Shown here one piece after another: positions 1,461 through 37,676 of a DNA stretch of 64,000 bases. Below the pieces are notes generated by a model. That model ran no database searches. It saw only the letters and a program-made list of their open reading frames with translations, and was not told the origin of the DNA. The stretch is from Candidatus Bathyarchaeota archaeon (GTDB lineage Archaea > Thermoproteota > Bathyarchaeia > 40CM-2-53-6 > RBG-13-38-9), in the NCBI GenBank assembly GCA_963807605.1, contig CAWECG010000003.1, positions 704,001 through 768,000 of the forward strand, read 5' to 3'. Position 1 is the stretch's first letter, and every line of letters begins with the position of its first letter. A program made the position numbers and the translations under genes.

Positions 1461-2474
1461 CTATGTCCCAGCCCGCGTTTTCTTAAGATCGAGAGCACGA
1501 AGTACTCTTTCTGGCGTAATAGGTAGTTCGTCGATCCACACACCCACGGCATCGTACACTGCATTCATAATCGCTGGCGATGGCGCGTTGGCTGTAAACT
1601 CCCCGATTCCTTTTACACCATACGGTCCGCCAGTAGATGGGCACTCGTAGATCCCTGCTACCAATTCAGGAACATCCATCACTGATGGAATGACATAGTC
1701 ACCAAGATTCTCAGGCTGCCACTTGAGCTCAGGATAGTATGGATGTAGATGTTCCATCAAGGCAGCGCCCATGCCCATCACCGCGCCACCCTCAATCTGG
1801 CCCTCAACTAGCATTGGATTTATTGCCTTACCAGCATCTACAACAGACGTAAGCTTGAGCACATCGACCACACCAGTCTCCGTGTCCACTTCTACTTCCG
1901 CTTGCACTGCGGTCCATGCAAGTGTTGTGAACGGGTCGATTCTACCTGTCACTGGATCAAGCTTAGAAGCAGGTCGCATGAAGTATCCGTTCCCAATAAG
2001 CGCCTTACCCAGCTCATATATCGCCTTGTTCGCGATAGCATCAATGTTCACACAACGCTCCGGTGATCCTCTGACAAAGATCTTACCTTTCTGAGCTACT
2101 AGATCTTTTGTTGAAACATCTAGATCTTCGGCTGCCACTTCAAACAGGATCGATCGCACTTGACGGGCCGCGTTCACCACGGCATTGCCCGTCATATACG
2201 TTACGCGGCTCGCAATACTGCCTGCACAGTGTGGACAGGTGTCAGTATCCCGATTCAGAACGTTGACTTGATCATACCCGATTCCTAACTCTTCGGCCGC
2301 CATCTGCGCCAACACGGTTTTACAGCCTTGGCCGACATCTGTTGATCCCACAATCAGATCCGCGGTACCATCGGGTTTGATCTTGATGATGGCATGACTT
2401 GGATCTCCGCCGCCAGTGAATCCTGTTGGATATAGCCCAACAGCAATTCCTTTACCTTTTTTCTTCATATTCAA
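1461..2474 (-). CDS. Xanthine dehydrogenase family molybdopterin subunit, C-terminal/medium chain (NdhM-like)
   Basis: DVGQG, GQIEGG..MG.G, GPYGVKGIGE motifs; split Mo subunit. Confidence 0.9.
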   Translation of the reverse strand: MNMKKKGKGIAVGLYPTGFTGGGDPSHAIIKIKPDGTADLIVGSTDVGQGCKTVLAQMAAEELGIGYDQVNVLNRDTDTCPHCAGSIASRVTYMTGNAVVNAARQVRSILFEVAAEDLDVSTKDLVAQKGKIFVRGSPERCVNIDAIANKAIYELGKALIGNGYFMRPASKLDPVTGRIDPFTTLAWTAVQAEVEVDTETGVVDVLKLTSVVDAGKAINPMLVEGQIEGGAVMGMGAALMEHLHPYYPELKWQPENLGDYVIPSVMDVPELVAGIYECPSTGGPYGVKGIGEFTANAPSPAIMNAVYDAVGVWIDELPITPERVLRALDLKKTRAGT

Positions 2475-35899: not shown

Positions 35900-36161
35900 T
35901 CTACGTAGGAGTGCACACTATTCGATTGTAAAGTCGCGTTATACGACGGTTTCGCGCGCTTCACTTCCGCTTGTAGTGTTGATTACCTGAGATGGAGACG
36001 ATTGATCAGTTGGCCTCCGCTTTTTCTTAAGGACGAAAACCCCGGCGAGCGCGCGCTAAAGTAATAGGACCTTACCATTACTTGATCACCGCCAAGTTAT
36101 AGCTTGAAGTTGGAAAGAAGGGCATGTGACGAAGACCGGATACTGCAGTCAATGTTTGCGA

Positions 36162-36644
36162 TCAAATATCTTTATACATTACGACCATGTGCCTGCCCGG
36201 ACCGTTGTAGTCCTTCACGGCTTTGACGCCGTCTAGATCTATCAGATCTCCCTCTTCAGAGAGTTTGAAACCTAGATTATGATGAAAGCTTAATGAATGC
36301 TTGTTTATGGGGTTAATTATCAAGCAAGCCTTGCGACAGCCCATTTTACTCACAACTTCAAAGAATCTGTTGTAGAGGTCTGTCGCAATCTTCCTTCTCC
36401 TCATCTCAGGAATGACGCATACGTCGTGTAGGTATGCTATGGCGGAGTCCAGCTGTGAGACCCATCCAAGAAGAAAGCCCACAATCTTGTCCTCATCTTC
36501 CGCTATCAGACAAGTATTGGCGAAATATCTTGTGAGGTCATGGTAGATGGAATCTCTTTCAACAGGCATTGGTGCACAGCTGGCTGCGATGCCCATTATT
36601 TCCAGAAAGTCTTCCTCTCGCACGCTTCTAATTCTTATCGTCAC
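36162..36644 (-). CDS. GNAT acetyltransferase
   Basis: V.PE.RRR..A, N..S..FH..LGF, DYNGPG. Confidence 0.85.
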   Translation of the reverse strand: MTIRIRSVREEDFLEIMGIAASCAPMPVERDSIYHDLTRYFANTCLIAEDEDKIVGFLLGWVSQLDSAIAYLHDVCVIPEMRRRKIATDLYNRFFEVVSKMGCRKACLIINPINKHSLSFHHNLGFKLSEEGDLIDLDGVKAVKDYNGPGRHMVVMYKDI

Positions 36645-36782
36645 CAGGGAGAACCTCCAAACTATTGCACAGATAATTAGCCGGTCTCTACTCTAAACTG
36701 ACTCGTAAAAAGAAGTAAGAGACACGTTTTCTTTAGGCTTTCTACTTTCTAGGCGCGCTAGCTATCGCTTATAGCCGACAAT

Positions 36783-36965
36783 TCAGAATAACATGAAGAA
36801 TAGTGCCGAAAAAACTAAGGAAATGATAGCCGTAAAACCTGTACTGAAAGAGTTTACAAACTCGTTATTCAGCGCGCGCGCTTTCCTCAAAAACTCAGCC
36901 ACACCGATCACAAGAAAAACATAAAAAGTTAACGCGATGCCCAGAATATCTCCCAGATAATCCAT
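36783..36965 (-). pseudogene. Internally deleted phytol/dolichol-kinase-like + DUF92 gene, joined at a (CG)5 palindrome
   Basis: N-term MDYLGDILGIALTFYVFLVIGVAEFLRK, junction ARA = GCGCGCGCG, C-term LNNEFVN...(DUF92-like end). Confidence 0.6.
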
Positions 36966-37079: not shown

Positions 37080-37676
37080 TTATTTTAGGTAGAGTTGTAT
37101 TTGCAAAAGCGTTAATCCAACAGTTAGTAGCGCGCCTGCTGCCACCTGGTTCAGGTCGTGTGCTCCGAGTTTGAGCCTAGCCCAGCCGATAGGAAAAATC
37201 AGCGCAAAAAATGGAACCATTATTGCTCCGAGCTGGAGGAGTAGAAAGGTAGCTGGACCTGTCAGTCCTGAAGCGTGTATACTTATCTTCCATGTCTGGC
37301 TTATCATCATCATAACAATAGAGTTGACTATGTAACATGCCATCAGAGCAATCAAGCTTTGGGGCGCTTGGACGATTACGAGAATGATTATACCTGCAAC
37401 GCAGCTGGCGATTGCTGCGATGAACGGTTTTGTACGTGTTCTTCTGTCCGACGCATACATATCCGGAATAATGCCTCTCTTCACCATAAGGCGGATCATG
37501 ACAAGTGGGAAAAAGCATGCAAACACTGAGGTTATGACTAGCAGCAATAACGTCGAGGAGGGGTGGATGGAGAGGATGAGAATTGTAAATGCGTACAATG
37601 CGGTGAAGGGCGCGTTGAAGACTGCCGATATTGCTTCAGCAATTCTCACTTGTGTATCCTTCAGATCGATCCACAC
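37080..37676 (-). CDS. PAP2-related membrane protein
   Basis: R..R..P, WKIS.HA.G, WAR..L.AH...QV..G. Confidence 0.8.
   Translation of the reverse strand: MWIDLKDTQVRIAEAISAVFNAPFTALYAFTILILSIHPSSTLLLLVITSVFACFFPLVMIRLMVKRGIIPDMYASDRRTRTKPFIAAIASCVAGIIILVIVQAPQSLIALMACYIVNSIVMMMISQTWKISIHASGLTGPATFLLLQLGAIMVPFFALIFPIGWARLKLGAHDLNQVAAGALLTVGLTLLQIQLYLK

Follow-up and report, generated by a model that had tools for sequence, protein, structure and literature searches.

The repair of two-ended DNA breaks without homologous recombination is poorly known for most archaea. The closest precedent, in logic and in method, for the joints described here comes from vertebrates, where the comparison of filled and empty orthologous loci revealed that interstitial telomeric sequences lie at sites of double-strand-break repair, the repeats having been copied from an RNA template by telomerase (PMC2246262, PMC7215372, PMC8537989). 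At the archaeal locus, as in vertebrates, a short defined repeat lies exactly at a repair joint and is recognised by the same filled/empty comparison. The vertebrate repeat is directional and G-rich whereas the archaeal unit is a self-complementary palindrome of 10-12 nt, and unlike the vertebrate insertions it goes with kilobase deletions in a circular chromosome that has no telomeres. The enzymes differ as well. Telomerase acts in the vertebrate case, but no reverse transcriptase is implicated in the archaeal case, for which the candidate is an enzyme of the AEP type and for which RNA templating has not been shown.

Among archaeal repair routes, the closest to the joining proposed here is the microhomology end joining carried out by PriSL of Saccharolobus islandicus, which involves terminal transfer, the annealing of short complementary ends and AEP extension and results in small insertions and deletions (PMC12019639). 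No constant insert is reported in the abstract of that study, whereas the motif described here is a fixed palindrome with a patchy distribution among lineages (PMC12019639). Another system, DRT10, consists of a reverse transcriptase and a non-coding RNA, the internal template of which sets the sequence of a tandem-repeat DNA (bioRxiv 10.1101/2025.10.16.682844). Like the candidate discussed below, DRT10 combines a prokaryotic enzyme with a structured non-coding RNA that dictates a short DNA repeat, but its enzyme is a protein-primed reverse transcriptase that acts in phage defence and is unlinked to chromosomal joints. Over-represented short palindromes that are largely intergenic, as A(GC)nT is, include HIP1 of cyanobacteria and REP/BIME of enterobacteria. 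To our knowledge neither appears as added sequence right at the joint of a deletion whose flanks are unrelated, and no prokaryote is known to us for which the sealing of joints with a sequence-defined palindromic linker has been reported. A full-text search of the literature gave nothing relevant on the motif in archaea.

In this report, a locus from an uncultured archaeon will be discussed that is, in our judgement, probably a clean before-and-after record of an undescribed mode of DNA rejoining. The term window will refer to the whole 64-kb stretch of DNA that was analysed.

The remnant open reading frame and its parent genes

The minus strand of the window contains, at positions 36783-36965, an ORF of 60 amino acids, the ATG start of which was confirmed. 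Codons 29-31 of this ORF (A29-R30-A31) read GCG CGC GCG on the minus strand and are contained in AGCGCGCGCGCT at 36871-36882, a perfect 12-nt palindrome. An earlier note, made from the sequence alone, had reported this ORF with the residues ARA at the palindrome and had assigned its N-terminal half to a phytol/dolichol-kinase-like protein and its C-terminal half to a DUF92-like protein. The ORF is present as described and the protein searches support both assignments. Residues 1-28 align with residues 1-29 of P0003, a protein of 227 aa that carries the JGI name 'phytol kinase' (27/40 identical in the local alignment, pairwise E 1e-14), from which they differ by two substitutions and one absent codon. 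Residues 23-60 align with the C-terminal 38 residues of P0004, a DUF92 protein of 276 aa (27/38 identical, E 1e-13). When the comparison is limited to ORF residues 32-60 and the last 29 residues of P0004, there are four substitutions, one of which (L for M) falls in the join codon, so that 25/29 residues are identical, or 25/28 without the join codon.

The ORF is thus a fusion that holds the remnants of two genes, as identified by the sequence searches and the alignments with P0003 and P0004. The first 28 codons of the kinase-like gene (36882-36965, minus strand) encode one transmembrane helix that ends in EFLRK and are near-identical in product to residues 1-29 of P0003 and to P0005. The last 29 codons and the stop of the DUF92 gene (36783-36871, minus strand) are identical in 84 of 89 nt to positions 1053-1141 of the metagenome contig L034. 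The longer relatives of the ORF that were obtained by protein search are P0003, P0005 (also 227 aa) and P0004, which is identical to the DUF92 protein of L034 (311-1141) and matches PF01940 with an E of 2.4e-70 (DUF92; PF01940, TIGR00297). A further protein, P0002, corresponds to the C-terminal half of a DUF92 protein, and over its last 35 residues it shares 69% identity with ORF residues 24-58. Pfam gave only sub-threshold noise with the ORF and no match with the 29 residues of the DUF92 remnant alone, and the kinase-like parent P0003 matches neither Pfam nor NCBIfam (E <= 0.01-0.1) and is without a relative of solved structure.

The existence of full-length homologues of 60 aa, or a failure of the two halves to match a long parent, would have refuted the reading of the earlier note, and neither was found. 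A word-indexed search of 5.8 billion proteins returned the ORF itself as the sole match among proteins of 33-105 aa, and in an exhaustive HMMER search of 1.84 billion representatives the only matches were the ORF itself and the 131-aa P0002, with no homologue of about 60 aa. The 40 related genomes gave no credible match to the ORF. Each half maps to a long protein, and the genes of the two lie side by side in a close relative. The idea that the ORF is a spurious intergenic frame holding an intergenic motif was dropped after P0002 had been obtained with HMMER and both parents had been found.

The relative in question is L034, a contig of 2,519 nt that was found by a scan of metagenome contigs with P0002 as the query. 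It contains the 3' end of a kinase-like gene (2-289), a spacer of 21 nt, a complete DUF92 gene (311-1141, 276 aa) and a GNAT acetyltransferase gene (1280-1762, 160 aa), all in the same orientation, as well as an intact class I methyltransferase gene (1821-2378, minus strand, 185 aa) that is convergent to the other genes. At 92% identity, the kinase-like gene that is truncated in L034 matches the C-terminus of P0003, and the parental order is therefore kinase, DUF92, GNAT. The relative has the kinase-like and DUF92 pair directly upstream of the same acetyltransferase gene that adjoins the remnant. Judged from these sequences, the parents are two adjacent co-directional genes (227-aa kinase-like, 21-nt spacer, 276-aa DUF92) and no fusion protein is involved. 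The earlier note had inferred that most of an intact kinase-DUF92 fusion gene was lost; the large loss holds, at about 1,360 nt, but the fused parent has to be replaced by two separate genes, which is the only correction that its description needs. A scan of genome contigs for the kinase parent found only kinases of 31-34% identity from other phyla.

A pair formed by the phytol kinase VTE5 and the DUF92 protein VTE6, a phytyl-phosphate kinase, is found in plants and cyanobacteria. VTE6 is named in PMC11926002. The archaeal parents are likewise a kinase-like membrane protein that adjoins a DUF92 protein, and this adjacency is as expected for two successive isoprenoid-alcohol phosphorylations, the archaeal function being inferred. 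The likeness is limited by the lack of a Pfam or NCBIfam model for the kinase-like parent and by the survival of just 28 + 29 codons at this locus.

The source genome (G000) also has a resident pair of kinase-like (237 aa) and DUF92 (272 aa) genes, which is intact and divergently transcribed (L005; C3:1091355-1093018). The resident DUF92 protein has a cysteine-rich insert ahead of its last helix, as in the lost copy. The resident pair is 29% (kinase-like) and 39% (DUF92) identical to the lost pair, and it was rejected as the source of the remnant on account of this low identity to the true parents and of an empty pairwise BLASTP with the ORF. The genes that were lost have the appearance of a divergent second copy of an isoprenoid-alcohol kinase pair, and their loss is plausibly neutral given that the resident pair is intact. 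For the same reason the remnant ORF is most likely functionless, and it is probably a pseudogene-like scar. The start codon of the kinase-like gene and the region upstream of it are kept, so that the remnant could be produced as a two-helix peptide. Relative to L034, the DUF92 part of the remnant has 3 non-synonymous changes and 1 synonymous change, numbers that are too small to judge.

Two joints at the ends of a conserved block

The comparison of L034 with the window by BLASTN resulted in a single block, in which L034 1053-1865 corresponds to window positions 36871-36058 (814 nt, 91.9% identity) and both ends of which abut GC runs. The identity is 94% in the DUF92 remnant, 89-90% in the spacers, 93% in the GNAT gene and 89% in the methyltransferase remnant. 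The GNAT acetyltransferase gene (36162-36644, minus strand; PF00583, E 1.4e-14) is intact, with 145/160 aa identical to the product of L034 1280-1762, and is the synteny anchor of the block.

Junction A is located within the remnant ORF. Here the (GC)5 linker occupies 36872-36881 and together with the flanking A and T makes up the 12-nt palindrome at 36871-36882, and the homology to L034 ends exactly at 36871. The motif is thus precisely at the join, as anticipated by the earlier note, in which it was held to mark a recombination junction. On the minus strand the window reads ...AGG AAA, followed by GCGCGCGCGC and then TG AAT AAC..., and L034 reads ...GGG ATC GCG ATT A followed by TG AAT AAC.... 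The corresponding place in L034 (ATCGCGATTA) has no GC run at the right breakpoint. Between codon 30 of the kinase-like gene and codon 247 of the DUF92 gene, about 1,360 nt are missing and the 10 nt of (GC)5 are present instead. This total is the sum of kinase codons 30-227 (594 nt, the length of the gene being taken from P0003), the kinase stop codon (3 nt), the spacer (21 nt) and the DUF92 gene up to the breakpoint (742 nt). The net loss of 1,350 nt puts the join in frame and leaves an ORF of 60 codons.

For the left side of junction A, only protein sequences of the parents are available. The residues at the breakpoint are K29-R-L in P0003 and K-R-F in P0005, and reasoning from the genetic code indicates that GCGCGC cannot fit K-R-L or K-R-F in any reading frame. 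The residues of the left parents thereby exclude GCGCGC, and the run is new on the left side too, a result that holds at the protein level since there is no DNA from a close relative. What is expected of a deletion scar, namely collinearity of both flanks with an intact relative that still has the genes missing from between them here, is met at the DNA level on the right and at the protein level on the left. The earlier note had left it undecided whether GCGCGC pre-exists at either breakpoint; it is absent from the L034 DNA on the right and excluded by the parental proteins on the left. From these comparisons, the left one being with proteins, the palindrome at junction A is taken to be new sequence and not pre-existing microhomology. 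It could still be that the motif entered first and the deletion occurred afterwards.

Junction B lies at the far end of the 814-nt block. The linker AGCGCGCGCT is at 36048-36057 and the homology to L034 ends at 36058, from where the last 14 codons of the class I methyltransferase gene (KVIGPYHYLITAKL, followed by the stop) extend to 36102 on the plus strand; this gene, of 185 aa, is intact in the relative. L034 has CACGGTTTCT in place of the palindrome, with the intact gene continuing, and the sequence of the window past the palindrome is unrelated to L034. The T that follows the GC core at junction B is not parental, which indicates that the inserted unit takes in the flanking A and T. Two gene-truncating joints are therefore present 814 nt apart, each with a palindrome exactly where the homology to L034 ends. 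With about 320 runs of at least 8 nt in 2.65 Mb, the chance of both block ends falling no more than 2 nt from a run was estimated at <1e-5.

A further GCGCGC is found inside the conserved block at 36753-36758, in the spacer that separates the stop of the DUF92 gene from the start of the GNAT gene (context CTAGCGCGCCTAG). The equivalent in L034 is GCACGC (context CTAGCACGCTTAG), and the site is possibly an older joint of both lineages that has decayed by transitions in the relative.

The surroundings of the block were also considered. Beyond junction B there is a stretch of 89 nt (35960-36048) that is bounded by a second GC run, CGCGCGC (35953-35959), and another 53 nt separate this run from the stop of an ABC-transporter gene (35899). 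Neither stretch occurs elsewhere in the genome, and they may be small fragments that were trapped between joints. On the other side, the minus strand at 37080-37676 encodes a multi-pass membrane protein of 198 aa that belongs to no Pfam family and has orthologues (63-69% identity) with entirely different neighbours in G001 and G002. In these two GTDB relatives, the 198-aa neighbour and the GNAT gene are on separate contigs with unrelated neighbours, and no shared synteny was found. Compared with its kin, the neighbourhood as a whole is a patchwork.

The palindrome in the window, the genome and its relatives

The A(GC)nT mark is spread over the whole genome, for the most part between genes, and its flanks are arbitrary. 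The window contains 15 copies of GCGCGCGC versus 0.33 expected and 45 copies of GCGCGC versus 7.8 expected, both expectations being derived from dinucleotide-preserving shuffles. Across the genome there are 640 alternating G/C runs of at least 6 nt. The 320 runs of at least 8 nt have A at position -1 in 77% and T at position +1 in 80%, with a weaker preference for T at -2 and for A at +2 and, beyond these positions, the background composition. The copies of A(GC)nT number 44, 106 and 5 for n = 3, 4 and 5, and those in the other phase, A(CG)nT, number 25, 30 and 19. Most runs with (GC)4 or more (208/269, 77%) fall outside a crude map of ORFs of at least 70 aa, a map that takes in about 83% of the genome. 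When the genome was compared with itself, a run adjoined 7.0% of the ends of two-copy similarity blocks, versus about 1% at offsets of 30-100 nt, and 5.8% of the ends of multi-copy blocks. The decamer AGCGCGCGCT is present in 106 copies in the source genome, 119 in the congener G001 and 16-63 in at least eight further genomes from the same family; only 0-5 copies are present in two genera of this family and in almost every other family of the order.

Two further observations concern the fate and the occurrence of the motif. A repeat that consists of the end of an NTF2-like gene and a small DUF1059-like ORF is present three times in the genome (C1:572864-573233, C3:844027-844393 and C3:581279-581641). 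Its spacer contains CGCGCGCG in two copies and CGTGCACG in the third, a difference that, read from the sequences, illustrates the decay of old runs by CpG transitions. The JGI protein P0002 derives from the DUF92 gene of another lineage, truncated at residue 160 with MLIENFGFEMFRK-ARA in front. Because A-R-A is what GCGCGCGC(G) encodes, P0002 may represent a second, independent linker-sealed break in the same DUF92 gene, the evidence for which is protein only. The 13 residues ahead of ARA (the N-terminal 16 in all) could not be traced in the genome or protein collection.

The origin of the linker

We consider it likely that the locus is the scar of a gene-pair deletion and that the palindrome is a linker that was written when broken ends were rejoined. 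The simplest reading, which is inferred, is that the linker is added to the ends and the ends are then joined. The comparisons show that the lineage once had a co-directional kinase-like and DUF92 pair directly upstream of the GNAT gene, from which about 1,360 nt were lost. By inference, each broken 3' end would have been given a short tail, A-GCGC(G), and as such tails are self-complementary, any two ends could anneal or be butt-joined and then be sealed. The expected outcome would be A(GC)3-5T with a mode at n = 4. By an arithmetic that is untested, two butt-joined tails of 6 nt would produce A(GC)5T, as at junction A, an overlap of the tails by 2 nt would produce the modal A(GC)4T, as at junction B, and an overlap by 4 nt would produce A(GC)3T. 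Whether the linker is non-templated, templated or the footprint of an element, alternatives that the earlier note had raised, is not decided from this locus alone.

Several other origins of the palindrome can be weighed against the structure of the two joints. A deletion could occur between two (GC)n sites that were already present, either through a site-specific recombinase that treats them like cassette borders or because such tracts are fragile and prone to form Z-DNA or hairpins. The motif is abundant and found at block borders, and the GCGCGC at 36753, which is common to the relative in decayed form, implies that motifs can pre-date later events. The intact relative is without (GC)n at the right breakpoint of junction A and at junction B, however, the left parents have K-R-L or K-R-F, and both breakpoints are within coding sequence. 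Two prior insertions of the motif into intact genes would be needed, which is the very phenomenon to be explained. As the palindrome is new at both joints, recombination between pre-existing sites is excluded for these two events, and overall we regard this origin as improbable. The footprint of a mobile element (IS or MITE), in which insertion and an adjacent deletion are followed by an excision that leaves a target duplication or terminal inverted-repeat bases, appears very improbable to us. The footprints of cut-and-paste elements are inherently palindromic, and the ends of multi-copy blocks do abut the motif in this genome, but the enrichment at the ends of two-copy blocks is at least as strong. 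There is no element or fragment of one at either junction, only A(GC)nT lies between the flanks and the flanking bases are not duplicated; a target duplication would require a pre-existing GCGC(GC), which is absent from the parents, and several rare steps would be needed at each of hundreds of sites. An error of assembly or binning, or a genuine small gene that resembles both families by chance, is hardly credible. The genome is metagenome-derived and transmembrane segments are of low complexity, but both halves are about 90% identical to the parents, in the parental order and orientation and with the same GNAT gene adjoining, no homologues of 60 aa were found in the protein searches, and the motif is abundant in ten independently assembled relatives. 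A repeat of 10 nt is also shorter than the k-mers used by assemblers, which counts against an assembly artefact.

The addition of a linker to broken ends thus remains the preferred reading, and the question becomes how the linker would be made. It may be untemplated, the product of terminal transfer or reiterative slippage by the replicative primase PriSL or another polymerase followed by annealing through the microhomology of the GC tails, an explanation that we view as doubtful. Archaeal PriSL is described as having terminal-transferase and microhomology-annealing activities and a role in double-strand-break repair (PMC12019639). A canonical PriS is encoded in the genome, and most motif-rich relatives have no match to the RNA model described below. 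The sharp form of the product (A first, then GC, with 106 copies of A(GC)4T versus 44 and 5 of the shorter and longer forms) would nevertheless be hard to obtain in this way, and PriSL is present in all archaea whereas the motif is patchy even inside one family.

A templated route can be put forward only tentatively, in which A(GC)nT is written onto broken ends by a small enzyme of the primase family (AEP) that copies a few bases of its own attached structured RNA. If true, such copying would be a telomerase-like reaction carried out by a polymerase that is not a reverse transcriptase, and it would make any two ends sticky. In addition to the canonical PriS, the source genome has three extra PriS-like genes, one of which (297 aa, C3:72237-73127) is the best current candidate for the writer. 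This gene is intact in the two most motif-rich genomes, and only fragments of it are found in three other motif-rich ones. At its 3' end, conservation at the nucleotide level extends past the conserved protein, and a structured RNA of about 90 nt overlaps it (C3:72281-72372). A second copy of the RNA is located outside any ORF (C1:380253-380346), so that the source genome has two copies; the congener G001 has three. The fold of the RNA consists of a 9-bp closing stem, a hairpin with CUGA and GAUGA on its two sides (k-turn-like boxes) and a third stem, with compensatory changes at 7/17 pairs across five copies, and the RNA matches no Rfam family. Four copies have the loop GCGCG-U-AAAAA or CGCGC-U-AA and the fifth has GCGCGC-C-AAAAA, and the loop holds only 5-6 alternating bases. 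Copying of the loop would result in A-CGCGC or A-GCGCG, both phases of which are found in scars, and the U of the loop would account for the A/T that flank the scars.

The linkage of polymerase and RNA is seen twice in this genus, where the RNA overlaps the 3' end of the PriS-like gene on C3 of the source genome and on C47 of G001. Additionally, G031, a genome from another family, has a PriS-like homologue of 42% identity with a weak match to the RNA model at its 3' end; the motif predicted from the loop of that RNA is not enriched in G031. Within the family, the RNA was found in 2 (plus 1 weak) of 10 motif-rich genomes and in 0/6 motif-poor ones, the assemblies being incomplete and the model narrow. 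Overall the RNA models match only this genus and, weakly, G003, G026 and G031. The RNA-templated writer is accordingly only partly supported, a lead and not a result, and there are no expression data. A second PriS-like gene (C3:316908-317654) was considered and rejected, as it is present in motif-free genomes and was not found in several motif-rich ones.

The pairing of Ku with a LigD-type protein for non-homologous end joining is uncommon in archaea. In the source genome, a gene for a LigD-type primase-polymerase domain is directly followed by a Ku gene (C1:590767-591847). Ku-LigD end joining resembles the proposed joining in that arbitrary ends are joined and nucleotides are sometimes added. 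Among the 40 relatives, Ku was found only in one other family (the sister family f2), which is motif-poor (0-2 copies), and it was not found in the motif-rich genomes G001-G004, G007, G009, G010 and G013 (28-119 copies). Since Ku was not found in the other motif-rich genomes and is present in a motif-poor family, Ku-LigD does not explain the motif and was rejected as its source.

The locus represents a single event for which both parents are identified, the breakpoints are exact to the base and a 92%-identical relative is still intact. It supplies what genome-wide statistics cannot, namely that the motif is new at the joint and is not a pre-existing recombination site. The joints described here are among the cleanest evidence for a GC palindrome written at a joint, and the enzyme responsible remains open. 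A statistical oddity thereby becomes a testable reaction, in which the question is which enzyme adds A-GCGC tails to 3' ends. For these archaea, past rearrangements can be traced by A(GC)nT runs, and in genome annotation a short ORF across such a run can be flagged as a gene remnant. If the writer does prove to be a primase that copies RNA, the locus would record two such events, with the intact state that preceded them kept in a relative.
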